Part shown: positions 305 to 52,902 of the stretch, piece by piece
Numbering within the stretch: the first letter of the stretch is position 1
Layout: each line of letters begins with the position of its first letter
NCBI GenBank assembly: GCA_001771185.1
Contig: METB01000001.1
Coordinates: forward strand, 94,520 to 158,519
Length of the DNA: 64,000 nucleotides
Origin: a candidate division Kazan bacterium RIFCSPHIGHO2_01_FULL_44_14
Lineage (GTDB): Bacteria; Patescibacteriota; Kazan-3B-28
Reading direction: 5' to 3'
Notes under the pieces: model-generated
Told to the model about the DNA's origin: nothing
Databases searched by the model: none
The model's input: the letters and a program-made list of their open reading frames with translations, nothing else
Position numbers and translations under genes: made by a program

Positions 305-403
305 AATTTGAGGACTACAAATGGATCTGAACGCATCTGGGTCAATTATAGAACCTTATGAGAACCTGTCTATCGGCAGACGGGGAAGCCAAAACCGCTA
401 AAG

Positions 404-1165
404 CTATAAGCTATTGAGCTCTTTATACATTTTAGCCACCTCCTCTGCTATAGATTCATACTCATTTCTGCCCACGACTTCTCTAATCTGGTCAATGTAC
501 CGCGTAGTCAACCTAAGGTGAAACGTTAAACCCAAAAATAAACCCTGTTGCATATAAAGTCCGTTCATCATCTCTGATTCTTTCGGATCCAACATTCCCC
601 TCACCACCATAGGGTTTGGATGATTCAGCCTACTTCCCCAAATATAAGCCTGCCCTATACGAGAAAAATCGAAGTCATTCAAGCAATGCTTATCGTGTAG
701 AGCCTTGAGCATCATATCCGCACTTAGACCCGCCCAACTATGTCTACCGTCCTTCAAATAAGATGGCACTTTTTCATACGACTCTGCCAGAATAGCAGAT
801 GATACGTCCAAATTAAGTGCCTCCTCTTGGTCCTTACCGCCAATCGATTTCAAAAACTCACGATCTTGGGTTAATTGAACCCAAAGATAGTCTTGAAATT
901 CCTTGGCCTTTTTATCTCTACCCTTCATTAACATATATTCAACGGTAAGCGAATACTCGGTTAGCTTGCGAGCCAAGTCTAAAACGCTCGCCGCAGCCTC
1001 CGTATGAGTAGCAAGATAATTGATATCCCTTAGTGCGGAAAAGGACACCCGATATATCCCCAACAGAACAGTCAAAAAATCATCTTGCTCAGTTCTTGCC
1101 CCTTCCGCCAATGGCTGGGTCGCAACCAGTAGTCTAACAAGCAACGACTTGAACCTATTTATCAT
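404..1165 (-). CDS. Hypothetical protein (253 aa), second gene of a two-gene operon; no recognisable domain
   Basis: Long ORF with an 11-nt overlap with the upstream ORF 1155..1886 (operonic). The macro-domain gene lies 100 bp downstream on the same strand. No motif is recognisable by eye. Confidence 0.6.
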   Translation of the reverse strand: MINRFKSLLVRLLVATQPLAEGARTEQDDFLTVLLGIYRVSFSALRDINYLATHTEAAASVLDLARKLTEYSLTVEYMLMKGRDKKAKEFQDYLWVQLTQDREFLKSIGGKDQEEALNLDVSSAILAESYEKVPSYLKDGRHSWAGLSADMMLKALHDKHCLNDFDFSRIGQAYIWGSRLNHPNPMVVRGMLDPKESEMMNGLYMQQGLFLGLTFHLRLTTRYIDQIREVVGRNEYESIAEEVAKMYKELNSL

Positions 1166-1886
1166 TAGTCACGACCTCCGCCACATCTACAAATGGCTCA
1201 ATTCGAAGATGTTGGTAAAGCAAATCTCGTATATCCCCAAAAATCTGATCAAGTGCCCCATCAATCTGAACCTGATTACTGGCTGCTATGCCGATCCATC
1301 GCTTCTGGGCCAATTCAAAAGATTCTACTATTTTACGCTTAAAGTGATCCACTGCTTCGGGTCGCATCCGATCTTTAAATGGTGAACTATCTCCCGATAC
1401 AGTAGCAAACACGCTTGCATCCACAAGATCCGCATCTGCAAACCGCATTCCCGTATGGTGATGCGGAACTCTGCACTCGGCTATCCCATTAAATACCTTA
1501 TAGAGTTGTCCTTTAATATGTTTAAGAGCCACCACCCACTCTTTGCCATTATTGGCCCGTCGTACATCTTTGGTTAGTACATCAAGAAAAGTTTTAACCT
1601 TATCCTTCAAACTATCAACGTCCTCTAGATAAGCATGGAGATGATGTTCGAGTGCCTCTGCACTGCTGATTTGCCCCGACTGATCGGGATAAAACTCGGT
1701 AAAATAAACTTCGTACCTTTTAACTTTTTTCAGAGCTTGGCTCAGAATCATAAGAAGTCCCAAGTACCTCTCCAACTCTCCATCATCCACACCAGTCTTA
1801 TCGATCCTGGTTATATACTGCTTCATTAGACACTCGGGATGAGCATAGACCATAACATCTGCAACTACCTTGTCAAAATTATTCAT
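1155..1886 (-). CDS. Hypothetical protein (243 aa), first gene of the two-gene operon; no recognisable domain
   Basis: Long ORF starting at ATG 1886 (MNNFDKVV...). It overlaps the downstream ORF by 11 nt. It sits inside a defence-island context. Confidence 0.6.
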   Translation of the reverse strand: MNNFDKVVADVMVYAHPECLMKQYITRIDKTGVDDGELERYLGLLMILSQALKKVKRYEVYFTEFYPDQSGQISSAEALEHHLHAYLEDVDSLKDKVKTFLDVLTKDVRRANNGKEWVVALKHIKGQLYKVFNGIAECRVPHHHTGMRFADADLVDASVFATVSGDSSPFKDRMRPEAVDHFKRKIVESFELAQKRWIGIAASNQVQIDGALDQIFGDIRDLLYQHLRIEPFVDVAEVVTNDK

Positions 1887-2010
1887 TTTAATCCTAAGAC
1901 ATATAAAATAGGTAAAACTTAGACCCAGACCAACTATACAGTGCTATCCCACCAGAGATCTGTCAATCACCTCCATAAAGGAGCTGCACAAAAATACAAA
2001 CTATCTATAT

Positions 2011-3180
2011 TCAACGATTTCCTTTTGCTCTATTATGCGTCTTACATAACATCTCACAGTTTTTGGCCGCCGTTTCGCCACCCTTACTCCATGCCGTTAC
2101 ATGATCTGCGTCCATTTCGTCTAACTTCCAAATCTTACTCTTGCTGGCATCATGTCCAATAGCACAATATGGACAGTTTGATTTACCTTGAGCTTCAGCC
2201 CTAGCAGTCTGTGTTGAATAAACAGCCTTCTTGGTCGCCTCATCAAAAACTCGAACATCGATCAATTTTGTGTCAATGGACCCACCGAGAATATACTCAA
2301 AAATGCCTTTGCGATTTTTGATGTACGGATCGCCATAGAGCTTATGCACCTCGGCTGATACTTTGGCTGGGTTGTATGATTTTTTGTGATACTCCTCGTA
2401 AAGTCGTCCCCATTCAAGCCCACGCATTTCGCTTTCTACGTCAGTAAATACGCTAGATACCCAATCAATGACGGTATTAAAATATTTTTTCAGCTCATCA
2501 ATATTTTTGTCTTTGCGATGCTTGCTCATGTAGTCGCCAATATTGCCTTTGCTTACCCAATCAAGAGCACATTCCAAAAATTCTTGCCTGTTGGCACTAC
2601 CTGATACATACGCACTCCATTTTTGAATATTGGCGTTTTGGCTATTACTGAATTCCTCTTTAGCTCTAGTTACGAACGGGCCGGAATACACGGCGTTGAG
2701 TAATTCCTGATTATTGAGCGGAACACCAGCAATATTGATTGTCTTAAACCATTCTTTTATCTGACTTTCTGTCCCTTCACACTCGTAAATGAGCAGTTTC
2801 GTTTCCAAAATTTTGACTTGCTTGTCTTTTGCCATACCGCCATAATATTGCTCCATGCCATTTTCGTCTTTGATGGCAAATTTGTCGGTGATAAATCGTC
2901 CGAGACTAGTGATGCGCTGTTGCCCGTCTAAGACTTCTAGGTTGTCGTCAGAAACTTTGTTGAAATAAATCAATCCTATCGGGTATCCTTTGAGAATTGA
3001 TTCAATAACGGCCATTTCTCTTTTGCCTCCGTCAGAAGCATAGATATAATTACGCTGATACTCTGGCTGAATCGTTAGTTTGCCGGATAAGCCAAACAAA
3101 CCCTTGCCTTCAAGTTCGTTATAGACGAACCCATCACAAATATCTTTGACTGTGGTGCTAGTCTTAAGTGTTGTTTTCAT
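2011..3180 (-). CDS. DUF262 (ParB/Srx-like, DGQQR motif) N-terminal domain fused to a C-terminal HNH nuclease; putative restriction-type endonuclease
   Basis: Motifs [11 protein letters not shown] and [10 protein letters not shown] are the DUF262 QR and DGQQR signatures. The C-terminus CPYCAIGHD...[10 protein letters not shown]...[15 protein letters not shown] is an HNH motif (CxxC...H...N...H). The start lies 4 nt after the upstream methyltransferase stop. Confidence 0.8.
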
Positions 3181-3184
3181 ATTA

Positions 3185-4282
3185 TTATTTCTTACGTCTT
3201 ATAAAAACTCGCTTAAAAGTTTCCTTGCCACTAATATGTGATCCGCGACCGTAAATTCTATTTGGATCTTGATCTATGCCTCGATTCGATCCAAGCAATT
3301 CAAACTGATCTGGATTATATTTATCTAAAAAACTGACAGGAACACCCATCACACCATCATAATCGCTTGGAATGGCATCGGTAAACGGAATTTCAATGGC
3401 ATCGTAGTTATCGTACTTATCATAAGATTTTTTGCCTTTAATCTCTTTGTGCTTGCTGTATTTTAAGTTCTCCTCCATTGTCATAAGTGGCAATATTTGG
3501 TGACGACGCCCATGATCAAGATTGGTAAACCAACAACAGTTTCTGAATTTCACCAAGCCAGTTTCTGGGTCATACACCCCGCCCGCATATTCTCTAGTAA
3601 TAGGCGTAGAAAAATAAGCGTTGCCAGCATTAAAGCCATTTCCTAACCACATTTTATTTTCTTTTATCAATGGAAATATTTCCTTGTAAATAATCGCACT
3701 TAGGTTACCAATGATAACGAATTTTTTATGATACTCAAAAAGCTGCTTCACATATTCACGAAATAGACTGAACGGCGGATTAGTTACCACAATATCGGAT
3801 TGTTCTAGTAATTTTATGCACTCGGGACCTCTAAAATCGCCATCTTTCTCAAGCGGCGTCCATTCATTATTTCTGTTTGCCCTTAACTGTTTGGCAATAT
3901 CTTTCAAGTTGAACTCACCGTCGCCGTCTATGTCCTTCACTTCGTTGATAATAAATTTGTTGGCGGTTACCTTTGGGCGGCCTTTTGCTTTTACAAGCGT
4001 TTTGTCATCACCAAACAAGCCTAATTGCGTGTTAGCAACAGGCGACGGCTTATAACTAGTTGTAATGAGCCGTTTTAATCCAAGCTTATTAAAATTGAGC
4101 ACAAAATAACGAAAAAAATTGCTCTCAAACGGATCATCGCAATTACAATACACCACCTGATCTCGAAACACATTGGGATTATATTCCAGATACGCCGAAA
4201 TCTCTTTTTGGATATCGCTATATTGGGTATAAAACTCATCGTTCTTTACCCTTTTTGCATTCGTAAGATTACTGTTTGCCAT
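3185..4282 (-). CDS. Putative N6-adenine DNA methyltransferase (gamma-class order: FYT motif X, then NPPF motif IV)
   Basis: NDEFYTQ near the N-terminus and IVVTNPPFS (the NPPF catalytic motif) are present. It is immediately upstream of and co-directional with the DUF262-HNH gene. Motif I is atypical ([12 protein letters not shown]), hence the moderate confidence. Confidence 0.65.
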
Positions 4283-4438
4283 AGTACATCCCGATAGTAC
4301 TCCAATATAAAATCCTCTTCTAAAGCCAGTTTTTGACTCCTTTAGTATAACTCAAAATAAGGCTTATTGGGACTGGACTTCGAGCCCCCTTCGGGCATCC
4401 TTACTCTGGTATAGACCGATAGACAAATGGAGGTGAAT

Positions 4439-5776
4439 ATGGCGCAAAACGAAGCGGTTTTAGAGACCCCAGAGGGGACCAGAGAAGCTCCCCAAGCAGA
4501 AGTTGGGAGATACTGCCTCTATGCCCGAAAGTCATCCGAATCGGACGAAAGACAGGCCTTATCCATCGACTCCCAAATCAAAGAGATGATGGCTATCGCC
4601 GAACGGGATGGTATTGAGGTGGTCGAGACAATCAGAGAGAGCCATTCAGCTAAGGATTCCGGCCAAAGACCGGAGTTTATGGAGCTTTTAAGGCGAATCA
4701 GAGAACAAGAGTTCAATGGAATTCTCACTTGGGCTCCCGACAGACTTTCGAGAAATGCAGGGGATTTGGGAGATCTGGTGGATATGATGGACCAAGGATT
4801 GCTGAAACACATCAAGACACCTAGCCAGATATTTAGGAATTCCCCCAATGAGAAATTCCTTTTAATGATTCTGTGCAGTCAGGCAAAGTTGGAAAATGAT
4901 AATCGAGGCATCAATGTAAAACGCGGAATGAAAAATAAATGCGACATGGGTTGGATGCCGTGTCTCCCTCCGCTTGGTTATCTGAACGATAAAGCAAATC
5001 ACACAATCATTGTCGATGCAGAACGAGCTCCGTTTATTAAAGAAGCATTTAATAAAGTCGCCGAGGAAGGCTATACCGGCAGAGCGTTATGGAGTTGGTT
5101 TAATAAAGAAACAGAATTTACAACCAGAGCGGGAAAGAAGATGGCTCTAAGTATGGTTCACAATATGCTGAGAAATCATTTTTACTACGGCCAGTTTATG
5201 CACGGCGGAGTAATGCACCAAGGTAAACATGAACCGCTGATTACAAAAGAGCTGTTTGATAAAGTCAGAGAAGCCATGCAAAAAGGCCCTCGGGGCAGAT
5301 ATGGCGAAAAAATGTTCGCCTTCACTCGAATGATAACCTGCGGAAGATGCGAACTTGGAATAACAGCTGAAGAAAAAGTTAAAAAGCTAAAAAATGGAGA
5401 AGGCCGACGACATGTCTACTACCATTGCAGCGGGTTTGGCAAATATCGATGTAAAGAGGGCTGGATGCGAGAAGCCGACCTTATTGAGCAATTTGTTGAG
5501 CTAATAGATGGAATGGATATCAACCGAATTGGAATGAGAGAGAAACTCCAAGAAGAAATTGAACGATACAATCGCTTCACCACCGGAGTACTCGGTATGA
5601 ATCCCGACACTTCCCCAATTCCCAGAGTAGACCTTAAAATGTACGCGAAATATATCTTGAGAGATGGTAGTCCAGAAGAAAAGCGAGAAATATTAAAGAA
5701 CATCAAAAACAAGGTGGTGCTGCACGATGGAAAACTATCGCTACAAAACACTCCGGAGTTAATTGAGCCCATCTAA
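4439..5776 (+). CDS. Large serine recombinase / serine integrase (resolvase catalytic domain, recombinase domain, zinc-ribbon)
   Basis: YCLYARKSSESDERQALSIDSQ is the resolvase catalytic-Ser motif. The protein is ~445 aa with a Cys-rich region (CGRCE...HCSGFGKYRC). GGAGGTG lies 5 nt before the ATG at 4439; an alternative in-frame ATG is at 4427. Confidence 0.85.
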   Translation: MAQNEAVLETPEGTREAPQAEVGRYCLYARKSSESDERQALSIDSQIKEMMAIAERDGIEVVETIRESHSAKDSGQRPEFMELLRRIREQEFNGILTWAPDRLSRNAGDLGDLVDMMDQGLLKHIKTPSQIFRNSPNEKFLLMILCSQAKLENDNRGINVKRGMKNKCDMGWMPCLPPLGYLNDKANHTIIVDAERAPFIKEAFNKVAEEGYTGRALWSWFNKETEFTTRAGKKMALSMVHNMLRNHFYYGQFMHGGVMHQGKHEPLITKELFDKVREAMQKGPRGRYGEKMFAFTRMITCGRCELGITAEEKVKKLKNGEGRRHVYYHCSGFGKYRCKEGWMREADLIEQFVELIDGMDINRIGMREKLQEEIERYNRFTTGVLGMNPDTSPIPRVDLKMYAKYILRDGSPEEKREILKNIKNKVVLHDGKLSLQNTPELIEPI

Positions 5777-5892
5777 CCCAACCATTGCGAAAAAGTTTAT
5801 AGTCTATGAGAAAAGTGGTTCATGCGCACCAGGAACGGTAATCTAGCTAGAGTAGGCTTACAACTCCCAACGGTATGATTTTGTACGGATAG

Positions 5893-7404
5893 TTATGCCT
5901 CGTTCTCTGGGGATAGTGAAACAAAGAGTTCGTAAAGTTTCTGAAATTTCTCACCAAATATTCGCCCAATCCTATTCCTTCTTATGGCATCCTGCAAATA
6001 CGACTCAGCATATGCTAATTCGGATTTTCGTCCAATGAGTTTCTTGAGTAGTGGCTTGCCAGAAGTTAATTTTAATATAGCAGTGTCGATTTTTGTCTTA
6101 GCCACATTTGACATAGTTTTCCAGACTGGGTCTTGAGACGATGCCATCTTGGATTTAATAGTTGACTGTACATTACTTTTGGTTACCCCCAGTACAGCAG
6201 ATACGATATCTAAATCGTACATAAGACACCCCTCCATGTCATACTGAGCCAACTTAATGAAGTGATTATCTCCTGGAAATTTGTCTGGCTGGTTATCACC
6301 ATCAGTCAAAAAAGAAACATTCGTAATAACAGAGGGTATGGAATTGCTAGCAAATAATTTATAGGCACTTTCTACTCCACCTTTTGCATTGTGTACCTCA
6401 ATCACATCAACAAGCTTTTGTGCACCCGAAATTTTTGCCAATGTCTCGATAACTATTTTATGGATATGGTCTTCTACAAAAACCACATGATTCCCCGATG
6501 GGTCATTAACTATCTTGAATACTCGCGTCCTGAGAGCATCTATTGTTTCTGATGTGGGGTTGCTAGATATTGCAAAGTGTTTAGCCTTACGGTTAATTTC
6601 CAGGAACTTAGAAATATTTTTATAGCCCTCTTCAAACACAATCATTGAATGAGTTGCTACCACAATTTGCTTATCGTATTCTTTGGCGAACCAATTTAAA
6701 TAGTCAAAAAAATACTTCTCGAACGACCAATTCAGATGTATCTCAGGTTCGTCTATAAGAAAAACATCATATTCATCACGTGCTTCATAAAGTTGGAATG
6801 CTAGAGATATGGATTCAGTCTCGCCTACACTCAATTGGTCTGTTGTAACTTTAAGAAAGCCAAACTTTTTTATGACAAAATCAGGAACATCCGCCTCCTC
6901 AAGTTTTAGGTCAACTATCTGATATTCGCTATATAATCGTCTCAGAATATTATTAAACTCTCTTACGGTACGCTTAAGAATGGTTATTTGGTCAACGCCT
7001 TCAGGTGTCACATTGCGCGCTTCGTGATAATGATACAAAACGATATCCGAAAATGGCGGATAGGTTTGATGGGATAGCTCTTCTAGTTTGCGATTATAGG
7101 CATTTTTTAAGTCATCCTTAATCTTACGTTGACTAGAAAATATCTCTTGTACACTTTGCTTAAATTTCCTTATTTCGATGCTTCGACTTGGGCTGTAAAC
7201 GGCAACCCTAAGGCCGGCCTGTCTAGATTGTTGCTCAATCTCAGATAAGAGTTTGCTTTTCCCGGAACCATTAATACCAGAGATAAGATTCAAGTGGGGA
7301 TTAAGATCGACGATTAGCCCATGCAAAAAATCTAACCCCTCGAGGTCTTTATAACCACTTGTAGTAGCACTTGCTAAAAATTTTACCAATCCGTCTTCAT
7401 TCAT
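5893..7404 (-). CDS. OLD-family nuclease (N-terminal ABC-type ATPase, C-terminal TOPRIM), stand-alone (class 1 OLD / GajA-like without an adjacent helicase)
   Basis: Walker A is LISGINGSGKSKLL, signature-like QLSVGE, Walker B VFLIDEPEIHLN. The TOPRIM motifs are HVVFVEDHIHKIVIE (conserved Glu) and SFLTDGDNQ (DxD). No UvrD-like partner gene is adjacent. Confidence 0.8.
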   Translation of the reverse strand: MNEDGLVKFLASATTSGYKDLEGLDFLHGLIVDLNPHLNLISGINGSGKSKLLSEIEQQSRQAGLRVAVYSPSRSIEIRKFKQSVQEIFSSQRKIKDDLKNAYNRKLEELSHQTYPPFSDIVLYHYHEARNVTPEGVDQITILKRTVREFNNILRRLYSEYQIVDLKLEEADVPDFVIKKFGFLKVTTDQLSVGETESISLAFQLYEARDEYDVFLIDEPEIHLNWSFEKYFFDYLNWFAKEYDKQIVVATHSMIVFEEGYKNISKFLEINRKAKHFAISSNPTSETIDALRTRVFKIVNDPSGNHVVFVEDHIHKIVIETLAKISGAQKLVDVIEVHNAKGGVESAYKLFASNSIPSVITNVSFLTDGDNQPDKFPGDNHFIKLAQYDMEGCLMYDLDIVSAVLGVTKSNVQSTIKSKMASSQDPVWKTMSNVAKTKIDTAILKLTSGKPLLKKLIGRKSELAYAESYLQDAIRRNRIGRIFGEKFQKLYELFVSLSPENEA

Positions 7405-7561
7405 TGTTTTATCAATTTGTCACAGCATTAGAATCAATCGACCGGACGCCACCATTCTAACACCAAAAAAGCCCCTTTGAAGGGTCTTCCTTGGAATATA
7501 TTTCTCACGCTTTTTTTATCGAGCTTACTAGGCAAGACGGTCACTTTGCCATTGTAGCTCT

Positions 7562-7635
7562 TGGCTGGGACGGAAGGACTCGAACCTTCGATCATGGGAC
7601 CAGAACCCATTGCCTTACCACTTGGCTACGTCCCA
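7562..7635 (-). tRNA. tRNA-Gln (anticodon CTG)
   Basis: A manual cloverleaf works. The acceptor TGGGACG/CGTCCCA has the U1:A72 pair, the D-stem is GCC/GGC, the anticodon stem is ATGGG/CCCAT with loop TTCTGGT, the T-arm is GAAGG-TTCGAGT-CCTTC, and the 3' end is an encoded GCCA. Confidence 0.8.
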
Positions 7636-9744: not shown

Positions 9745-9764
9745 GAATGGAATAGTGAAAAGTT

Positions 9765-9905
9765 ATAAGTGATAAGTGAAAAGTTGTGGTTACCCGACAA
9801 GTAATTTTTAATGATGAATTTTGAATTTTGAACCAATGAGATAATGTTTTAATTTTCAAACATTCAGTCATTGGGATTTGATTAGAAATTAGAAATTAAA
9901 AATTG
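9765..9905 (+). repeat. Copy 1 of a MITE-like intergenic repeat (other copies at 15518..15797 and inverted at 35884..36085)
   Basis: The shared sequence is gtgaaaagtt(a)taagtgataagt ... aagtaatttttaatgatgaattttgaattttga ... taattttgaaacattcagtcattgggatttgattagaaattagaaatt. All three copies align on it. Confidence 0.7.
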
Positions 9906-14435: not shown

Positions 14436-15506
14436 TCATAGAGAAGTGATAATATCCTTTAGACGACGAGCCGACTTCTCCCACGAAAAATCAGCCAGCC
14501 GTCGTCTTCCAGCCGCCACATAGTGCGCTCTGGCGCTAGAATTGTCCAGTATCTGCCGGATTCCATTGGCAATCTGACTGGGTGAAGTTGGTTCAACCAA
14601 AACCCCGGCCTCTCCAGCAATTTCTTTCAAGGCACCCGAGTTACTAGTAACTACTGGCAGATCGTGAGCGAAGGCCTCCAAAATTGGCAAACCGAAACCT
14701 TCATACAACGAGGGAAACAGTAATAATTTGGCTCGCTGATAAAGAGTATTTAGTCCCATTTCCGAAACAAATCCCAGCAAATGGACTTGGTCGCTTAACC
14801 CATATTCTCTGGTCAAATCCTTGACCGGCTCTCCCAAATTTGTTGGACCGGCAAAGACCAAGTGTAAGTTGGGATAGGACGCCACTAGTTCGGCAAAAGC
14901 ATGAATAATATTAAATGGGTTTTTGCGCGGTTCGATTCGACCAACCACCAAAATAAATTCATCGGGAATTGGCAAATGGACTGGCTCAAGCGAGTCGATC
15001 GTGGATGGGACTGCGTTATAAACCACCTCGATTTGATTAACCGGCGTATTGAAATAATGTTCCAGGTCGAGCTTGGTTTGCTGACTGACGGCAATAATTT
15101 TAGTCGCAAACCGACGCGCCCGTTTGACGGTTAACCATGAACTTAACCAATTTTTGAAAGTATAAGCCCGAGGAAATCTCATAAAGGCCAAATCATGTAC
15201 GGTTGCCAGAACTTTACTCGGAAGCTTGCGCGGCAAAATATTACTGGGCGACCACCACACATCTAAGTGATCATGAGCAATCGCTTCGGACAGGGCGGTT
15301 TGGGTCCACCACCTGGTCGACGGAATAATTCGGCTGATAACATGAGAATGATTTTGGAATTGCCAAGGCAAAGTCGACGGAGTGTAAAGAATGTATTCTA
15401 AATCGCCCTCTAATTGCAACAGAGCATAAATTAGTTCTCGAGTTGCCACCTCCACACCAGTGGGCTGGGATTTGACCAAGGCCGATGCATCAATACCAAT
15501 ACGCAT
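14436..15506 (-). CDS. Glycosyltransferase family 4
   Basis: EGFGLPILEAFAHDLPVVTSNSGALKEIAG. Confidence 0.85.
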   Translation of the reverse strand: MRIGIDASALVKSQPTGVEVATRELIYALLQLEGDLEYILYTPSTLPWQFQNHSHVISRIIPSTRWWTQTALSEAIAHDHLDVWWSPSNILPRKLPSKVLATVHDLAFMRFPRAYTFKNWLSSWLTVKRARRFATKIIAVSQQTKLDLEHYFNTPVNQIEVVYNAVPSTIDSLEPVHLPIPDEFILVVGRIEPRKNPFNIIHAFAELVASYPNLHLVFAGPTNLGEPVKDLTREYGLSDQVHLLGFVSEMGLNTLYQRAKLLLFPSLYEGFGLPILEAFAHDLPVVTSNSGALKEIAGEAGVLVEPTSPSQIANGIRQILDNSSARAHYVAAGRRRLADFSWEKSARRLKDIITSL

Positions 15507-15517
15507 GGTGAAAAGTT

Positions 15518-15797
15518 AAAAGTTAAAAGTGATAAGTCCTCCTCCGCCTAAAGCTACGGAAGGATCTGTGATGAAAAGTGACGGCATTTATCCTCCTGCC
15601 GTCATCCCGGCAAAGGCCGGGATCGTATAAGATTCTGGATGCGTTCTGCTGTCCAGCAGAACTTACCAGAATGACGGATGTCCCGGCAAGTAATTTTGAA
15701 TGATGAATTTTGAATTTTGAGTGAATAACCCTAATATCTTAATTTTGAAACATTCAGTCATTGGAATTTGATTAGAAATTAGAAATTGGAAATTAAG
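15518..15797 (+). repeat. Copy 2 of the MITE-like repeat, carrying a ~135-bp internal insert rich in palindromes (gttctgctgtccagcagaac, ccagaatgacgg)
   Basis: The 5' part ggtgaaaagttaaaagttaaaagtgataagt and the 3' part aagtaattttgaatgatgaattttgaattttga...cattcagtcattggaatttgattagaaattagaaatt both match copy 1. Confidence 0.65.
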
Positions 15798-22900: not shown

Positions 22901-22976
22901 ATTACCCCCCCCTTGACCCCAACCCCCAGATACGCTAATCTGGCAAAGTAGTAATTTGATGCTTCCCCCTATTTTA

Positions 22977-23062
22977 TGGGGTCCCCGAAATGGTCTAATT
23001 CCGATGAACAGAGAAATGAACATTTTGGGGAAGAGGAGAAATCCTTGAGCATCAAAAGCGCC
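22977..23062 (+). ncRNA. Conserved ~85-nt structured element, copy 1 (second copy at 32946..33030); putative small RNA or cis-regulatory leader upstream of rpmA
   Basis: gggGtccccgaaatggtctaattccgatgaacagagaaatgaacattttgggga... aligns with the copy at 32946. A 10-bp stem ccccgaaaug / cauuuugggg is preserved in both copies through a G-C to G-U change. Confidence 0.4.
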
Positions 23063-32850: not shown

Positions 32851-32945
32851 AACCTAAGTATATCTGAAATCAAAAAAGCCACGCCACTAGCGTGGCTTAT
32901 AATTATCAGATTTACTCTTGAAACTGTGGGCTAGTTCTCTTGATT

Positions 32946-33030
32946 GGGACCCCGAAATGGTCTAATCCCGATGAGCAGAGGAATGAATATTTTGGGGAGA
33001 AGGAAAAACAATTGAGTGACAAAAGCATCC
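32946..33030 (+). ncRNA. Conserved ~85-nt structured element, copy 2
   Basis: gggaccccgaaatggtctaatcccgatgagcagaggaatgaatattttggggagaaggaaaaa aligns with 22977..23062. It precedes a ~480-bp ORF-free region. Confidence 0.4.
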
Positions 33031-33503
33031 CGGCGAGCCGAGATAGCGTAACACGAAATTGTTTGGATATAAAATAAGGGGTCATACAGGCGCCCTAAAA
33101 TAAAAAATTAAATGGCGTGATGACCCCTTAAGGTGCAAACACCGAACCGTCCCGCCGACGCAACTGACCAGCAGTCACTATCGAAAAGTTTTTGGATGAA
33201 GAACAAAACGAATTTTGTTTTTATTTTTCCAACACGGGACAGTGTCGGAAAGCGAAGCACCACTGGGGGGAGTGATACCTCGCTTCCCGACACTCTCGCT
33301 AATACTTGTTGTCAAAGGCCTTCACCAAATTATATCACTGTACCACAAGCGAAACCCTTCGTCAATACTCCTAGCCAGTAAAGCCGATATTAGTGGCTTC
33401 TGGAGCACAAAGTTTTTTAGTTATCCCCACCCAGTAGAAGATATTGGATGGCACTTTGTGCCAATCAGAGAAATCCAATATACTCTACCAGGTTTAACCC
33501 GTT

Positions 33504-35870: not shown

Positions 35871-35883
35871 TATACAAATAAAT

Positions 35884-36085
35884 TCTTAATTTCTAATTTC
35901 GAATCAAATCCCAATGACTGAATGTTTCAAAATTAAGATATTGAGATATTGATTCAAAATTCAAAATTCATCATTAAAAATTACTTGCTGGAACATTACA
36001 ACTTTTCATCGCAGATCCTTCCGTAGTTCTGCCGTACGGCAGAACGAAGGAGGACTTTTCACCTATCACTTCCCTCATTTGTCAT
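35884..36085 (-). repeat. Copy 3 (inverted) of the MITE-like repeat, with a palindromic insert ccgtagttctgccgtacggcagaacgaagg
   Basis: Its reverse complement matches aagtaatttttaatgatgaattttgaattttga...cattcagtcattgggatttgattcgaaattagaaatt and ...gtgataggtgaaaagt. Confidence 0.65.
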
Positions 36086-40843: not shown

Positions 40844-40892
40844 TGGCAGACCGTGGTGGAGCCTGCCTGCCGGTAGGCAGGGAAGTTAGAAC
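40844..40892. repeat. Intergenic repeat family R1, copy a (others at 41957..42008 and truncated at 46343..46372)
   Basis: tggcagaccgtggtggag-cctgcctgccggtaggcagg-gaagttag; the embedded hairpin is CCTGCC..GGCAGG. Confidence 0.7.
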
Positions 40893-41956: not shown

Positions 41957-42008
41957 TGGCAGACCGTGGTGGAGCCTGCCTGCCGGTAGGCAGGGAAGTT
42001 AGGACTAC
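41957..42008. repeat. R1 repeat copy b
   Basis: tggcagaccgtggtggagcctgcctgccggtaggcagggaagttagg is identical to copy a over 46 nt. Confidence 0.7.
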
Positions 42009-42622: not shown

Positions 42623-44314
42623 CTATGGAGCGCGAGGGGGTTCGAATGAATATCCCAGAGAATCAAGGCGAACAGCAAACTGCTCTAATGCTACGAGAAG
42701 GTTTCGTAGATACGACTGAGCAACGGCATCGGTGACTGAAGAAGATATGGAAAACAATAAATTGTCCCAATTATCACCAGTGCACATTGAAGGGTGGCGC
42801 ATGTATGGCACCCAAATCTCAATTCTAAACCCGAAATTCCATGGCCAGCCAGCACTATTAACTTGACTATCACGGATGAGATCGCGTAGCTTTTTTCTCA
42901 GTCGGCAATTTCGAAACAATAGCGACCACAGTCGATAGTCGACGTCGATACACTGCATTAGGCCGTGCAAATATGCTTTGACATACGATAACAGACGAGC
43001 TGTTTCTCGGTGAGCATAATCTCGTCTTTCTCGTTCGGCTACTCGCTTGTCCCGCTCGGCTTGTTCGGCTAGTTGCCTATCCCGCTCGGCTTGTTCGGCT
43101 AGTTGCCTATCCCGCTTGGCTTGTTCTGCCAACTGTTTGTTGTGTTCAACTCGCTCGGCTTGTTCGGCTACTTCTTTGTCTCGTTTGGCTTGCTCGGCGA
43201 TCCGTTTGGTTTTGGCATCCAGTTCGGCTTGCTCAGCAGCTTTTTTTGCTATCGCTTCTTTCTGTGCTAACTTGCGCTGAAGTTTTTGCCGCTTCCAACG
43301 AGCTCGTTTAGCTAAATAGTCCCTCACCGCCTTCTGATAATCGACAAACTCTTTATTAGACGACGAGGGAAAATCGCTGAGTAAAGCAATTGGGATACAT
43401 GCCTCATCAATGTCAATCGCCTTCTGAACTATGCCAAGAACCGTCTTAATCGACTGACCAATCCAAGCACCGTATAGTGCCTGCCCTAGCCAGTAGGTGG
43501 CATTAGTGGCGTCCAGCTTAACGATTATCGACGATATTTGAAACGCTTGCTGAAAATCGCCTAACCGATGACATGCTTGAGCCAGATTAATCAGTCCCCG
43601 CACCCGATGCCCGGTAGTGCGAGCACATTTTGTAGCCAGTTCAAAACTGCGCCTGGCTTCCGACCAGTTGTTGCGAATCAGGTGGATGTGACCCAAGTGG
43701 TAGTAAGCCAAGTAAGCGGTTGTGTCGTGCCTCAACGACTTCAGCAACTGTTTTTCAGCTAATTCGAATTCCTGCTGATAAAACCACAGTAGACCTTGTT
43801 CGATGTGTTGACGAGCGGTATTGGCAAGCGGGTTACGCAACACATCAACTACCTGCCGTCCAATGCTCACTAGCTGTGTCGCTGACCAGTTTAGAGTGAC
43901 TAATTGTTGGTTAGTTTTATCTAACTTGGTACCGATATAGCCTAACTGATTATTGGTTTTGTCCAATTGATGACTAACGTGGTCTAGCCGATTGCCGACA
44001 GCCATCATGGTAAGGTCAAGAAACTGAGCTACTCGATCAAGTTCACGAACAATGTCTTTAGTAGATTGACCGATGGCCAATTCCATTGACCGCCTAAGAC
44101 TGTTGATGGTGTATTCTATTTCTGAGGAAAGGGCGTCGTACAGATCGGATTGAGATTCTAGTTCGGACTGCAGGTTTCCCAACTGCAAACTCAGCGACTG
44201 GCCAAGCGATCGGAGGGCGGAGGTGGTATCCATCGTCCCCCGCTGTACAATGTTTTCCATCCCCCACAGGGGTTCGGTCAACACAAGATCTAGACGAGAG
44301 TGTTCGATGCTCAC
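42623..44314 (-). CDS. TPR-like / coiled-coil repeat protein (563 aa) with tandem RQLAEQAERD decapeptide repeats
   Basis: The central region is helical, TPR-like. The C-terminal part contains AEQAKRDKEVAEQAERVEHNKQLAEQAKRDRQLAEQAERDRQLAEQAERDKRVAE, encoded by a 30-bp tandem DNA repeat. Confidence 0.6.
   Translation of the reverse strand: MSIEHSRLDLVLTEPLWGMENIVQRGTMDTTSALRSLGQSLSLQLGNLQSELESQSDLYDALSSEIEYTINSLRRSMELAIGQSTKDIVRELDRVAQFLDLTMMAVGNRLDHVSHQLDKTNNQLGYIGTKLDKTNQQLVTLNWSATQLVSIGRQVVDVLRNPLANTARQHIEQGLLWFYQQEFELAEKQLLKSLRHDTTAYLAYYHLGHIHLIRNNWSEARRSFELATKCARTTGHRVRGLINLAQACHRLGDFQQAFQISSIIVKLDATNATYWLGQALYGAWIGQSIKTVLGIVQKAIDIDEACIPIALLSDFPSSSNKEFVDYQKAVRDYLAKRARWKRQKLQRKLAQKEAIAKKAAEQAELDAKTKRIAEQAKRDKEVAEQAERVEHNKQLAEQAKRDRQLAEQAERDRQLAEQAERDKRVAERERRDYAHRETARLLSYVKAYLHGLMQCIDVDYRLWSLLFRNCRLRKKLRDLIRDSQVNSAGWPWNFGFRIEIWVPYMRHPSMCTGDNWDNLLFSISSSVTDAVAQSYLRNLLVALEQFAVRLDSLGYSFEPPRAP
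43051..43140. repeat. In-frame 30-bp tandem repeat (2 perfect and 1 degenerate units, with further degenerate units on each side)
   Basis: cccgctcggcttgttcggctagttgcctat x2 exactly, then cccgcttggcttgttctgccaactgtttgt. Confidence 0.85.
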
Positions 44315-44437: not shown

Positions 44438-44527
44438 TGGCAGGACAGCTGAATTCCGGTTATTCCTAAGGAGTAAAAATGGAGGGTTTTGGGTAGGTCA
44501 TCTGCCACTTAGGTTCATTATAGAACC
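44438..44527 (-). promoter_or_regulatory. Intergenic repeat family R2, copy a (others at 45241..45330 and 47922..48012); conserved putative promoter plus leader
   Basis: The three copies share tggcagg(a/g)cag...ccaaggag(t)aaa...gggtaggtc...gggttcattatag(a/g)acc. The minus strand reads ggt(t/c)ctataatgaacc, a perfect TATAAT, oriented toward a downstream minus-strand gene in each case. Confidence 0.5.
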
Positions 44528-44539
44528 TACGCAATAAAA

Positions 44540-44863
44540 CTATACATTACCTATTAGAGCGAACTGGAAAAAGTATCGATTCAAAGATACCCATTCCGGA
44601 CTATCCGCAGTGGTTTGGCTTTGCCATGTCTGAACCAAAACTTCTCTGGCTCTGGCAATTTCTCGTAGGCGAGACCCATCAGTTTGGCTTTGCAGGGTTA
44701 AATCAATTAGTTCAAGCATTCGTTCAAAGGCCCGTTCGGCGATGGCATCGTCTTTACCTCGCCACTTGAGCATTCGGCTGACTTCACTACCAACATTGCC
44801 TAACTGTTGAGGTAGAGTTAGTTTAGACCAACTTTGGATTAGAGCATCTGAATGATGGTTCAT
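44540..44863 (-). CDS. Small hypothetical protein (107 aa), downstream member of an overlapping gene pair
   Basis: ORF overlapping the upstream ORF by 4 nt (ATGA). It is helical with no recognisable domain. Confidence 0.5.
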   Translation of the reverse strand: MNHHSDALIQSWSKLTLPQQLGNVGSEVSRMLKWRGKDDAIAERAFERMLELIDLTLQSQTDGSRLREIARAREVLVQTWQSQTTADSPEWVSLNRYFFQFALIGNV

Positions 44864-45204
44864 ATAATCAATTGTTTTACGATATTGATAATTTTTTCTT
44901 TTGTCTCTGTATCATCAACTCCACGGGAACGATTGTTTTGTGAAGGACGAATATTAATCATGGAATCGAATTCTATCCAGTCATCAGTTTGGATATCTGG
45001 ATAGAGATTAATACCCCAAAGATTGGTTTGAATGGAGCCCTGTTCTAATAATAAAGCCTCTTCATCGGCATGGAGTTCTCCACCGACCGCCATAATACCT
45101 TGCTCAATATCAACCACGCACTTAACTAAATCACCAAATCGTTCTTTGGCGATTTCCGTAAGTTCGGTTCGAGAAATAGGTTGAGTAATAATTCTGATAT
45201 TCAT
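44860..45204 (-). CDS. Small hypothetical protein (114 aa), upstream member of the overlapping pair
   Basis: The ORF start at 45204 is 32 bp downstream of R2 copy b. The 4-nt overlap with the next ORF fits a TA-like or two-component arrangement. Confidence 0.5.
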   Translation of the reverse strand: MNIRIITQPISRTELTEIAKERFGDLVKCVVDIEQGIMAVGGELHADEEALLLEQGSIQTNLWGINLYPDIQTDDWIEFDSMINIRPSQNNRSRGVDDTETKEKIINIVKQLII

Positions 45205-45240
45205 AAACTGGTTAAAGATTGATTATAGATAATTCTCGGA

Positions 45241-45330
45241 TGGCAGGGCAGACGGGTTGAGATTACGCGCCCAAGGAGATAAATTAAGGTTTTGAAAGGG
45301 TCTTTAGGGGGACGGGTTCATTATAGGACC
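45241..45330 (-). promoter_or_regulatory. R2 repeat copy b
   Basis: tggcagggcagacgggttgagatt...cccaaggagataaa...gggttcattataggacc; the minus strand carries ggtcctataatgaacc. Confidence 0.5.
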
Positions 45331-45409
45331 CACAGGGATAAATCTAAGCGCTACTTGACTGTTTACCGTATAGCGTGTAGAGTACAAGTATACACATGAT
45401 AAATACCTC

Positions 45410-45940
45410 CTATGGGTTCTGTCCCTGGGCGGTATTTTTCGTTTTAGAGCCATCCCCTATTTTCCGGGTAAGATTGTCCATATAGATAATCTTCTCCTTG
45501 GCCGTTTGTTTTAACAATGACGAGCAGGTCTTTTTGTATGGGCTTAAGACGGCTCGAAGTTTGTGGTTGTCGTAGAGATGTCGCACGAGAGAATAGAAAT
45601 CACCGTCGCTGGTAATAATCACGGCTTGGTCATATTTGTCGTAGTCCAGCATGGCTTGGAGCACTAAATCGGCGTCGACATTCCCCTTAATATTGCCGTC
45701 TCCGTCTGGGATAGTCGGCTTGAATTTCACTACAAATCCGGCTTTTTGGAAAAGATCATAGAGGTCATTATGCTTAGCAACATAGCCAATGAATAAGTAG
45801 GCAATATCAACTCCATACTTTTCAGCTAAGTAGCGACGAAATCTAACCCAATCAATCTTCCAACCCAATGACTCGATGCCCCGATAGACATTTTGACTAT
45901 CGATAAAGGCGTAGTGATTTTGTGGTAGTTTTCCGTGCAT
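45410..45940 (-). CDS. NYN-domain (LabA-like, PIN-related) putative ribonuclease
   Basis: AFIDSQNVY...DGNIKGNVDADLVLQAM...AVIITSDGDF is the NYN/LabA acidic-residue pattern. Confidence 0.7.
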   Translation of the reverse strand: MHGKLPQNHYAFIDSQNVYRGIESLGWKIDWVRFRRYLAEKYGVDIAYLFIGYVAKHNDLYDLFQKAGFVVKFKPTIPDGDGNIKGNVDADLVLQAMLDYDKYDQAVIITSDGDFYSLVRHLYDNHKLRAVLSPYKKTCSSLLKQTAKEKIIYMDNLTRKIGDGSKTKNTAQGQNP

Positions 45941-45996
45941 ATTTTAATAATACCCTACTCTAAGAGAGATAGGGTGGGAACGGAGTTCCAAATTAG

Positions 45997-46320
45997 TTAC
46001 ACAGATATCTTTTCACCGATATTATCAAAAACCGTCACATCTCCCTTGTCATACTCGCCCATTTCAAATCCGTCGTATTCAAAATGGTCGCCATCTTGAT
46101 AAAAATACAGGGCTGTTTTTAAATCCAATACTAAGATAAATCCGCGCTTGGTGCCAGCTGTCGGGTATAAATCTATTCTATGGGTATCACCAAAAATCTC
46201 ATGCGCTTTATCAAATACCGGATTAGCAACACCAAGTTCTTTGGCAAACAACCTAAAGGCAGCCCATGGCCAAAGTTTTAGTAATAATTTACGGTGCCAA
46301 GAAATTTTTCTGTTAGCCAT
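45997..46320 (-). CDS. Hypothetical protein (107 aa)
   Basis: ORF 56 bp upstream of, and co-directional with, the NYN gene. No domain is recognised. Confidence 0.45.
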   Translation of the reverse strand: MANRKISWHRKLLLKLWPWAAFRLFAKELGVANPVFDKAHEIFGDTHRIDLYPTAGTKRGFILVLDLKTALYFYQDGDHFEYDGFEMGEYDKGDVTVFDNIGEKISV

Positions 46321-46342
46321 AAATCGATATTCTATTCTTTGC

Positions 46343-46372
46343 TGGCAGACCGTGGTGGAGGAAGTCAGGACA
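46343..46372. repeat. R1 repeat copy c (lacks the cctgcctgccggtaggcagg hairpin)
   Basis: tggcagaccgtggtggag-gaagtcaggac. Confidence 0.6.
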
Positions 46373-46390
46373 CAGATGATAATATCCTAC

Positions 46391-47788
46391 TCAGACGGGC
46401 TGGGCCAAATTGTGTCTTTTCTGTCTAGATAAAACAATGGCATTCACTACCCAGAAAGCTACAAAACTAACAACCACTGCTGGAATAAAAGCTTCCACTG
46501 GACTGATCCAGAGAAAAGCAACTAATGTGATTGTGCCCAAGACGATACTCCAAAGTGCTGCTTGCGAAGTAGCCTTTTTCCAATAAAAGCCAAAAACAAT
46601 TGTGGGTATTAACACCGCCACAAAACTTACAGCCTCGATAGCAAGATGCGCTAAGCTAAAGATAGCAATTGCCACAATTACGGCGATTGCTCCCACAATA
46701 AATGTAGTCCAACGGCTCAAGTGTAAGGTCTGAGCTTCGGTTAATTTTTTACCAAATGTTTCTTGTGTTAAATCATGCACTATGGTCATGCTCATAATCA
46801 AAAGCATCGTATCCGCTGAAGACATAATAGCAGCAAAGAAACCAGCCAGCACCACGCCAAACATTACTGGTGAAAGGAATGAATTAAGCAGCTGCGGAAC
46901 CACCATATTGGCTTCTATGCCAGGCAATAATATATGCCCGTAGATTCCAAGCAGGGTTCCCATAATGATGAAGGCAAAGGTTACAAAAGCACCTACTGTC
47001 ATTGCCCATTTTACATTCTTGGCCGTATCTCCAGCGTAGGTTCTTTGCCATATATCAGAGCTCGTGATATTGGTTGCACCTAAAAACAGGAAGCCAAAAA
47101 CAAAAACATACCATGGCGCGAATTCACTACCGCCTAAGAACGAAGCTGGCAGGTTAGTAATAGCTTGAAAACCGCCTCCTTGCGCAATCAGCATGGGGAG
47201 AAATATAGCCAAAAGACCCAGCATAACGATGAACTGAAATATGTCTGTGCGGATATCAGCCCTCAGCCCTCCTATTGTCGTGTAAAGCACTACAATGCCG
47301 CCTCCAATTGCAGTCGCCCAGATGGGGTCAAGTCCACCCACGGCGGCGACAAAGACGCCTAACCCTAGAATCTGGAGAGCTAGCCATAACGCGTAGGTAA
47401 TTAAGTTGACTACCATACCAGCTACTTGAACTGCCTTTGAGTAACGATGTTTCAAGAAGTCGGGAAGGGTGAAGGCCCCATGTGTATCACCGAACTCTTT
47501 AATTTTTGGTGCGAAGAACCTGGCATATATCAAAAAATATACAAACATCGAGCTCAGCAGAAACAATGTTGCTAACCCACCACCTGAATATGCGATGCTG
47601 GCATTGGACAAAAGAGCGCCTACCCCAATAAAGCTAGACACCAGGGTTGCAACCAATACAAACTTATTTGTCTTCCGAGAGTTAACCCAATAATCTGCTA
47701 AGCCGACTTTTTTACGATCCCATACACCGATTAAGAAGATAATCAGGAAAAAGATACCGACAATCCAAATTGCTGTTGAGTTTATCAT
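46391..47788 (-). CDS. Sodium:solute symporter (SSF) family transporter
   Basis: About 12 TM helices with SSF-typical N-terminal helices and GG-rich segments. The start was taken at MINSTAIWIVG (ATG 47788). The ORF extends to 47902 but its leading 38 residues are non-hydrophobic. Confidence 0.8.
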   Translation of the reverse strand: MINSTAIWIVGIFFLIIFLIGVWDRKKVGLADYWVNSRKTNKFVLVATLVSSFIGVGALLSNASIAYSGGGLATLFLLSSMFVYFLIYARFFAPKIKEFGDTHGAFTLPDFLKHRYSKAVQVAGMVVNLITYALWLALQILGLGVFVAAVGGLDPIWATAIGGGIVVLYTTIGGLRADIRTDIFQFIVMLGLLAIFLPMLIAQGGGFQAITNLPASFLGGSEFAPWYVFVFGFLFLGATNITSSDIWQRTYAGDTAKNVKWAMTVGAFVTFAFIIMGTLLGIYGHILLPGIEANMVVPQLLNSFLSPVMFGVVLAGFFAAIMSSADTMLLIMSMTIVHDLTQETFGKKLTEAQTLHLSRWTTFIVGAIAVIVAIAIFSLAHLAIEAVSFVAVLIPTIVFGFYWKKATSQAALWSIVLGTITLVAFLWISPVEAFIPAVVVSFVAFWVVNAIVLSRQKRHNLAQPV

Positions 47789-47921
47789 ATATTGATTATA
47801 ACAAAGCTTATCACGATGTATATGGAATTTGGCAGGGGCCATCCTACGCTCTAATGAGCTACGGAATGACAATTCCCTACAACCGTTCCATAGTTCTGCC
47901 AAATGGCAGAACGACGGACGG

Positions 47922-48012
47922 TGGCAGGACAGACGGGTTCAGACCCTCCCCCCAAGGAGTAAAAACGAGGATATTGGGTAGGTCGTCTGGCACTTGGGTT
48001 CATTATAGAACC
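47922..48012 (-). promoter_or_regulatory. R2 repeat copy c, in the divergent intergenic region between the SSF transporter and the R-M methyltransferase
   Basis: tggcaggacagacgggttcagaccc...ccaaggagtaaaaa...gggtaggtcgtctggcacttgggttcattatagaacc. Confidence 0.5.
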
Positions 48013-48127
48013 TAAGGAGAAAATGAGACAAATGAGACATCCCATGAAAAGACCTCGATGTCTTATTTTAGGGATTACCCTGCTGTATCTAGGTCTTCCA
48101 TGAACCGTGGGTTAAGATAGTAGTAGG

Positions 48128-52220: not shown

Positions 52221-52304
52221 CGTGAATTTAATTAGTTATATTTAAAATTGATAGCTTATAATCCTCCTGGGGAGACGGGCGGGTCGCTTGACTCGCGCAC
52301 TTGA

Positions 52305-52378
52305 TGGCAGGGGCGAGAGGAGTCGGACCTCTACTTAGAGTTTTGGAGACTCTCGTGATACCGTTTCACTACGCCCCT
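52305..52378 (-). tRNA. tRNA-Trp (anticodon CCA)
   Basis: The manual fold has acceptor AGGGGCG/CGCCCCT, D-stem GTGA/TCAC, anticodon stem AGAGT/ACTCT with loop CTCCAAA, T-arm AGAGG-TCCGACT-CCTCT and an encoded GCCA. Confidence 0.85.
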
Positions 52379-52777: not shown

Positions 52778-52902
52778 AATATTTAATAAATACTAAATTC
52801 TAATATCTAAATCTTAAACAAGCACGAAATTCTAAATTATAAACAGGTTTGAGAAATTGGGATTTGGGGTTTGTTTAGTGTTTAGGATTTCTAATTTAGA
52901 GT

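Follow-up and report, generated by a model that had tools for sequence, protein, structure and literature searches.

R2, a mosaic intergenic repeat ending like tRNA-Trp, as a possible cassette junction in a Kazan-group bacterium of the candidate phyla radiation

The attachment (att) sites attL and attR that bound islands at tRNA genes, including islands that accrete in tandem, and the attC sites of integrons and of clusters of attC sites lacking integron integrases (CALIN), such as the Vibrio VCR, are the described systems closest to the repeat considered here. Two further comparisons are with the Correia elements of Neisseria and the enterobacterial BIME and ERIC sequences, which are promoter-carrying mosaic intergenic repeats, and with Listeria LhrC and staphylococcal RsaE, sibling trans-acting small RNAs whose CU-rich seeds are complementary to the Shine-Dalgarno (SD) sequence. 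The repeat, designated R2, lies between genes in a stretch of 64,000 nucleotides (positions 94,520 to 158,519 of contig METB01000001.1; hereafter the window, whose coordinates are used throughout) from a Kazan-group bacterium of the candidate phyla radiation (CPR, also Patescibacteria). It is an undescribed element, widely shared in the CPR; literature searches, both with its sequence and for intergenic repeats or attC in the CPR, did not find it. The best explanation of the locus is that R2 and a second repeat family, D10, punctuate a variable array of accessory genes anchored at the 3' end of a tRNA-Trp gene. More specifically, we tentatively favor the view that R2 is a mosaic cassette junction of att-like character, with an end like that of tRNA-Trp and a -10 box that faces outward.

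Three copies of R2, all co-oriented on the minus strand, are present at 44438-44527 (c1), 45241-45330 (c2) and 47922-48012 (c3), as the preliminary description had reported, and all three share the core GGTYCTATAATGAACC, the invariant CTCCTT and a terminal CCTGCCA, whose last base falls at 44438, 45241 and 47922, respectively. An nhmmer profile of R2 copies returned exactly three full matches in the 64 kb (E 5e-32, 4e-28 and 3e-27), and the 16-mer GGTYCTATAATGAMCC, with up to two mismatches, matched four times against 0.11 expected, a count reached in none of 100 shuffles; the fourth match, at 340-355, where the profile also gave a partial match, is a promoter-like box only, with no full R2. 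R2 is composed of three constant boxes, K1 (GGTTCTATAATGAACC), K2 (AUUWWHCUCCUU) and K3 (GUCUGYCCUGCCA, which finishes as the tRNA-Trp gene does), alternating with two exchangeable modules, V1 (about 36 nt, occurring as types A, B and C and as variants) and the hairpin-prone V2 (about 27 nt). The module types mix freely, the combinations A-I, B-I, A-II and C-II all having been found. Copies c1 and c3 carry a type A 5' module joined to 3' modules of type II and type I, respectively, c2 carries a type B 5' module, and pairwise identity among the three is 64-78%. Every full copy measures 85-86 nt from TATAAT through the last base of CTGCCA, apart from one that holds a 75-nt insertion; TATAAT is kept in all copies but one (TATAAC); a purine follows 7 nt past it in all; and CTCCTT is invariant, in an A/U-rich context.

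Each window copy faces a minus-strand gene at a distance of 36-133 nt. Copy c1 begins 12 nt past the stop codon of a 107-aa gene and ends 123 nt ahead of the GTG (44314) of a TPR/coiled-coil gene; c2 lies 79 nt past the stop codon of an NYN gene and 36 nt ahead of the ATG (45204) of a DUF5674 gene, which is followed by the 107-aa gene; and c3 precedes an SSF transporter gene (ATG 47788). Conserved sequence around c3 extends more widely, over about 47829-48045 (minus strand). It includes a 30-nt upstream module, TGTCTCATTTGTCTCATTTTCTCCTTA (48013-48045), with a 9-nt direct repeat and a -35-like TTGTCT 18 nt from TATAAT, which also stands ahead of R2 in the homologous loci L034, L022, L018, L031, L026, L037 and L043, and trailing blocks (47829-47921) formed of two more CTGCCA-terminated pieces, the hairpin GTTCTGCCATTTGGCAGAAC and GGGAATTGTCATTCCGTAGC..GGATGGCCCCTGCCA, which match L022 and L024 at 93% identity over 46 nt.

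The preliminary description had proposed that R2 is portable, and in this it was right: in at least 17 other contigs, homologous copies that retain the boxes and the 85-86-nt length adjoin unrelated genes, and the search for further copies that it had called for yielded about 20 more in CPR or Kazan-like contigs. A pattern scan of one genome per species placed R2 in three CPR metagenome-assembled genomes and a metagenome scan added about 12 real copies, each scan using one pattern; loci retrieved through their protein neighbors, and so not selected by pattern, contained R2 in L036 (two copies), L037, L041 (three), L043 (two), L044 and L045. The copies in L038 and L045 are decayed or disrupted, and small GC-rich hairpin inserts interrupt those in L030, L036, L045 and L026. 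The DUF5674 protein next to R2 has more than 8000 homologues, the named ones being from Patescibacteria, the nearest named relatives of the window NusG are from candidate division Kazan (81% and 75% identity), and the same-species contigs derive from groundwater metagenomes. BLAST of R2 against phage and plasmid collections gave no match. A phage or plasmid origin was likewise rejected by pattern, the full R2 pattern giving one chance match in viral contigs and two other R2 patterns none, while 28 viral matches to a 19-mer of the upstream module proved to be unrelated 9-nt tandem repeats.

R2 is linked to tRNA-Trp by its 3' end. The window tRNA-Trp (CCA) gene (52305-52378, minus strand) ends in CTCGCCCCTGCCA, in which both R2 and D10 terminate, and the (C)CCTGCCA terminus of R2 is identical to the last bases of that gene (...CCCCTGCCA; ...CGCCCCTGCCA). 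In other genomes the identity continues into the trailer of the tRNA gene (TCAAGTGCGCGAGTCAAGCGACCCGCCC..., 52265-52304, minus strand), which recurs after R2 in L034 and L031 (94% over 36 nt by BLAST; 37/43 positions), while a variant tRNA-Trp trailer follows R2 in L013, L030, L026, L036 and L038. On the Kazan contig represented by L033 and L041, an R2 copy 2.6 kb downstream of tRNA-Trp and its trailer is followed by a trailer 77% identical to it. At the exact position of c2, directly upstream of DUF5674, L044 carries a genuine tRNA-Trp 3' fragment (z = 10.5), of which 16/16 nt match the T arm of the L039 tRNA. The tRNA-Trp gene stands just after nusG in the window and in L041, L039, L040 and L042, and the stretch from it to dac-ybbR has syntenic ends and a gene content that varies between genomes, with abundant accessory and defense genes for restriction-modification, PLD nuclease, NYN, HEPN, Fic, patatin, Ltp and reverse transcriptases. 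R2 lies downstream of tRNA-Trp in the same orientation in the window, L033/L041 and L038, and R2 or fragments of it, oriented like the tRNA, occur within the tRNA-Trp to dac-ybbR stretch in the window, L041 and L038. In these respects, namely a terminus made of the last tRNA bases, often with the trailer of that tRNA behind it, a position downstream of one tRNA in one orientation, the delimiting of variable accessory and defense genes, and a recombinase-bearing island at the very same site in the related genome L040, R2 resembles the att sites of tRNA islands. It differs from them in sharing only 7-9 nt and the trailer with the tRNA, its interior not being significantly similar to tRNA-Trp; in bounding blocks of one to three genes with no integrase; in adding about 80 conserved nt with TATAAT, the invariant CTCCTT and exchangeable modules; and in existing alongside at least one other family, D10.

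D10 is a second family of CTGCCA-terminated junction repeats, with homologues in L036, L037 and L040. Its three window copies, all on the minus strand, lie at 46343-46371, between the SSF and 107-aa genes (97% identity over 33 nt to L036), at 41957-42005, between the UDG gene and a 313-aa gene, and at 40844-40892, where the next ATG is 3 nt past CTGCCA; they occupy positions equivalent to those of R2 and lack a promoter box. The palindrome CCTGCCTACCGGCAGGCAGG is inserted in two of the D10 copies. From 40.8 to 48.0 kb there are seven co-oriented CTGCCA-terminated repeats (three R2, three D10 and the c3 trailing block), which delimit blocks of one to three genes, and 15 of the 29 minus-strand CTGCCA sites of the window are intergenic, although intergenic sequence makes up only 19% of it. 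A small hairpin insert, TCCTTCGCCAAGGCTTCGGAATGGCC(C)TGCCA (compare TCCTTCGCCAAGGCTTCGGAATGGCCCTGCCA), occurs directly after CTGCCA and is itself CTGCCA-ended, like a target duplication; it is found at L036 9960-10010, at L038 2685-2722, in L019, and after R2 in L022 and L024.

This arrangement also invites comparison with integrons and CALIN. R2 is of constant length and stands right after the stop codons of short, unrelated, co-oriented genes, the array starts at one fixed site, and the repeats occupy consecutive intergenic regions. The same attC- or cassette-type reading has been raised for the DUF1874 motif (Weinberg et al. 2017; PMC5737381). R2 departs from attC in that neither strand of any copy has RYYYAAC/GTTRRRY core sites, and canonical attC was rejected on that account; the ends are instead GGTTC... 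and ...CTGCCA. As a whole R2 is no imperfect palindrome, although GGCAG/CUGCC ends are present in types A and C, not in B, and the anchor of the array is the end of a tRNA gene rather than attI. No tyrosine recombinase, and hence no IntI-type integrase, was found among the genes at 39-53 kb or in the related loci. It is enticing to speculate that R2 and D10 are the attC equivalents of an integron-like cassette-capture system of the CPR, with the tRNA-Trp 3' end (...CTGCCA) serving as attI, a large serine recombinase acting in trans, and each joint recreating the CTGCCA target while supplying the promoter of the next cassette, an extension that we consider improbable.

Comparisons between related loci place breakpoints at the ends of R2, at K1 and K3. 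L040 and L042 share the same tRNA-Trp, and L040 has a 9.3-kb island inserted directly after CCTGCCAG; the island encodes a 551-aa large serine recombinase, and its far end is a D10-like repeat, ...CCCCCTGCCA (...ACCACCCCCTGCCA). In the close relative L043, c1, its spacer and the start of the TPR gene are 100% identical to the window, whereas the position of c2 is taken by another R2 type behind another upstream gene, and homology to the window resumes straight after CTGCCA (35/36 positions); that other upstream gene shares 71% identity with the one ahead of R2 in L034. The HEPN proteins encoded in L012, L019 and L024 are 94-98% identical, and the R2 bodies behind their genes differ, homology ending just past K1. 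Copy c3 and a copy in L036 (1756-1846) differ at 3/91 positions and have unrelated neighboring genes, the DUF5674 DNA being only 76% identical; R2 is much better conserved than the adjacent coding DNA. Such a mixture of near-identical and decaying copies is more in keeping with mobile or exchanged DNA than with an RNA gene maintained by vertical descent.

A candidate enzyme class for the R2/D10 junctions is suggested by a large serine recombinase gene elsewhere in the window (4427-5776, plus strand), whose predicted product has Resolvase, Recombinase and Zn_ribbon_recom domains and is 59% identical to a recombinase in L018 and 57% to a fragment in L024, both of which lie 0.5-2 kb from R2. The gene belongs to a defense island (340-7635) adjoining tRNA-Gln (7562-7635, minus strand), which also comprises an AAA_15/AbiEii-like ATPase gene (5893-7404), an EcoRI-type methylase gene (3185-4282), a GmrSD plus HNH nuclease gene (2011-3180), a 243-aa gene and a DUF5677 gene (404-1165). 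At the far end of this island lies CCCCGTCTGCCGA, followed by the isolated R2-like promoter box GGTTCTATAATTGACC (340-355, minus strand), 45 nt ahead of the ATG of a macro-domain gene.

Under the cassette-junction reading, blocks of DNA would be inserted or replaced downstream of tRNA-Trp at R2 and D10 joints. Site-specific recombination of the type suggested by the large serine recombinase at the same site in L040 could bring this about, and so could homologous exchange from one conserved box to another; the two may also act together. The joint would travel with the blocks and bring a -10 box for whatever adjoins it; we infer that R2 is itself the recombination substrate and that its TATAAT fires. 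Several observations weigh against this reading. The window tRNA-Trp array contains no recombinase, and neither a circular or excised form nor a clean empty-versus-filled pair was seen for any R2-bounded block. An unbiased sample of three further tRNA-Trp hot spots (L039, L040 and L042) contained no R2. The 3' modules of R2, taken without CCTGCCA, gave local alignments to five tRNA-Trp genes with z of 0-1.7, which is not significant. In the comparison of the window with L043 the DUF5674 gene itself has diverged (86%); homologous mosaicism must therefore also be at work, and it may explain this case instead of a clean site-specific joint. Finally, serine-recombinase att sites require only about 50 bp, and a pure recombination joint leaves unexplained the invariant CTCCTT, the constant length and the retention of 90 nt.

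The preliminary description had interpreted R2 as a portable promoter joined to an anti-SD leader, and that proposal fared unevenly: portability and a possible promoter stand, while occlusion of the ribosome-binding site falls, because of the terminators and convergent genes downstream of R2, the missing SDs, the downstream genes' own TATAATs and the linkage of R2 to the upstream stop codon. The promoter part is favored by the near-invariant TATAAT and the purine 7 nt downstream; neither a -35 nor an extended -10 is conserved. The -35-like TTGTCT accompanies only those copies that have the upstream module and is absent from copies directly after a stop codon, and TG at -15/-14 occurs in no copy, other promoters of these genomes showing TGnTAnAAT. 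Perfect gene-sense intergenic TATAAT boxes are rare in the window (11 in total). Among the boxes outside R2, one of which is at 33329, the checked ones of the SSF, DUF5674, gyrB, zip and 131-aa genes lie 6-66 nt ahead of the start, and no start codon was found near the box at 52836. On sequence grounds, it is plausible that the TATAAT of R2 is a -10 box, and this box probably restarts transcription toward the adjoining block.

The leader part of the proposal, in which a promoter and a cis-acting anti-SD leader would co-regulate the downstream units by occluding their ribosome-binding sites, is very unlikely. It draws on the perfect -10 box, on the position of the checked gene-sense TATAATs ahead of start codons, on the co-directional gene that each of the three window copies faces, on the next start codon lying only 5-21 nt past R2 in L036 and L037, and on the AAGGAGG of the TPR gene, which could pair with CUCCUU. 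However, the TPR gene is the only one of the three with an SD; the DUF5674 and SSF genes lack one, and in each case a separate TATAAT of the gene intervenes before the start codon (45222-45227, between c2 and the DUF5674 ATG, and 47795-47800, both on the minus strand). The latter box, 6 nt ahead of the ATG, is of a leaderless type and independent of R2. Public assemblies call the SSF transporter (46391-47902; 483 aa) from an ATG inside the ..GGATGGCCCCTGCCA repeat block; its Pfam domain and the TATAAT 6 nt upstream favor ATG 47788 (465 aa) as the true and probably leaderless start. Nor does R2 behave as a dedicated leader in other loci. In L012 an intrinsic terminator comes directly after it, ahead of a promoter that belongs to the next gene; L034 and L013 have a terminator about 80 nt past it; and L011 and L022 have a convergent gene next. 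Its tight joint is to the upstream gene, R2 beginning 0-16 nt past a stop codon in at least seven cases (0-1 nt in L012, L019, L024 and L036; 12-16 nt for c1 and L030), with the next start 5-270 nt away. The D10 repeats, at equivalent positions, have no promoter box at all, and the want of a conserved -35 or extended -10 tells against a dedicated promoter-leader as well. An alternative is that each R2 is an independent small-RNA gene, in which K1 would be the promoter of a tRNA-sized RNA of about 74 nt ending in ..GCCA, which has the tRNA-Trp trailer and hence perhaps the 3' processing of that tRNA, and in which an exposed, CU-rich CUCCUU would bind SDs in trans. Terminators directly after R2 (L012) or after its trailer (L034 and L013), R2 copies ahead of convergent genes, the near-invariant TATAAT with its downstream purine, the constant 85-86 nt from TATAAT to CCA, the invariant CTCCTT in A/U-rich surroundings, a conservation far above that of neighboring coding DNA, and a V2 that in most variants folds as a hairpin closed by GGG..CCC, with differing inner stems, speak for such a gene. 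LhrC and RsaE offer a parallel, in that they too form several clustered copies, each with a promoter-like box and a conserved CU-rich motif complementary to AAGGAG; they differ in that R2 shows no consensus fold and that most of its copies lack a terminator.

Structure does little to help the small-RNA reading. RNAalifold found no consensus fold on either strand (energy -0.14 kcal/mol), 65.5% of cells are paired in the best fold drawn by hand, compared with 42-58% in slid controls, and folding z-scores are mostly 0 to -2, so that support for a conserved fold is weak. Rfam searches matched nothing to R2, whether at the gathering threshold or at E ≤ 10 (for the region) and E ≤ 0.1 (for 13 homologous loci). 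In the window all three copies lack a terminator, elsewhere R2 is disrupted or decaying (L045 and L038) or missing from several related genomes, and free exchange of modules with breakpoints at the R2 ends would be unexpected of a conserved RNA gene. The reading is therefore on balance unlikely, yet it retains appreciable weight because the joint model does not account for the invariant CTCCTT and the constant length. The third alternative, that R2 is a small non-autonomous mobile element (a miniature inverted-repeat transposable element or a derivative of IS200/IS605) that inserts in one orientation 3' of a CTGCCA target, for example the tRNA-Trp end, and recreates the target at its own 3' end, is also improbable, and somewhat more so than the small-RNA gene. 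It is suggested by copies with the upstream module that have ..CTGCCA(C) at their left edge and CTGCCA at their right (L034, L022, L018, L031, L037 and L043), by the small hairpin insert TCCTTCGCCAAGGCTTCGGAATGGCCCTGCCA between two CTGCCAs, by uniform orientation and near-identical copies in different genomes, and by a Y1 (RAYT-like) transposase in L037. R2 nevertheless has no terminal inverted repeats; its left palindrome, GGTTC-TATAAT-GAACC, is unlike the right hairpin and does not fit IS200/IS605 ends; many copies (c1, c2, c3, L012 and L036) have no left CTGCCA; copies are few and clustered; none was found in the viral, phage and plasmid collections; and the REP-like repeats beside the L037 transposase have a different sequence. 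The Correia, BIME and ERIC elements, like R2, are short intergenic repeats of interchangeable modules able to supply a -10 box to neighbors, whereas R2 lacks their terminal inverted repeats and TA duplication, is few in number and clustered near one tRNA gene, and is shared among CPR genomes at 95-100% identity.

Other identities for R2 were considered and rejected. ARAGORN and the Rfam tRNA model found no tRNA or pseudo-tRNA in it, and its interior is not significantly tRNA-Trp-like. A small protein is improbable on either strand: the frame from the ATG in TATAATG stops after 6-7 codons in most copies, and the AAGGAG plus ATG arrangement on the opposite strand is not kept among copies. A dif/Xer-like 11-6-11 site around TATAAT was dismissed, the palindrome measuring 7-9 bp in some copies and not being kept in types B and C. 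A template repeat of a diversity-generating retroelement (DGR) came into question where the L018 copy follows a DGR-type reverse transcriptase (LGNLTSQ), but the copies show no adenine-specific differences and most have no reverse transcriptase nearby. A RAYT/REP system fails in that the Y1 transposase of L037 is flanked by a different repeat. A known RNA family was likewise set aside, the only other Rfam match in these searches being a LOOT RNA near the L018 copy.

CPR bacteria have tiny genomes, and to our knowledge little is known of how they gain and express accessory and defense genes. Proof that R2 is a recombination joint would identify a defined hot spot of gene flux in these bacteria and suggest how that flux may come about, and it would give metagenome searches a sequence by which to recognize such arrays. 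Should the RNA reading prove true instead, R2 would represent a new class of tRNA-sized RNA specific to the CPR.

Some further sequences of these loci deserve mention. The LOOT RNA (Rfam RF03000, 75 bits) occupies L018 1617-1736, 165 nt downstream of the R2 copy. In L037 (250-1180) the RAYT-like Y1 transposase gene (365-1027) is accompanied by the REP-like GGTCAAAAGAGAACCGTCCCTAATCCCC, present once in inverted form on the upstream side and three times in direct form on the downstream side. Within the window, the TPR/coiled-coil gene contains a 30-nt tandem repeat at 43023-43220 that encodes a repeated AEQAKRD/AEQAERD peptide. Three intergenic, A/T-rich repeats of one family, 130-250 nt long and containing short tandem units (AATTTTGA, TAAGTGA), lie at 9752-9904, 15505-15794 and 35881-36008; two are direct and one is inverted, with arm identities of 86-92%. 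Lastly, an 87-nt direct repeat at 22973-23059 and 32940-33026 (82% identity) lies in gene-poor stretches at both sites; its first copy is just upstream of the gene for ribosomal protein L27 (23109-23381, plus strand), and the repeat could be a leader or a small gene.

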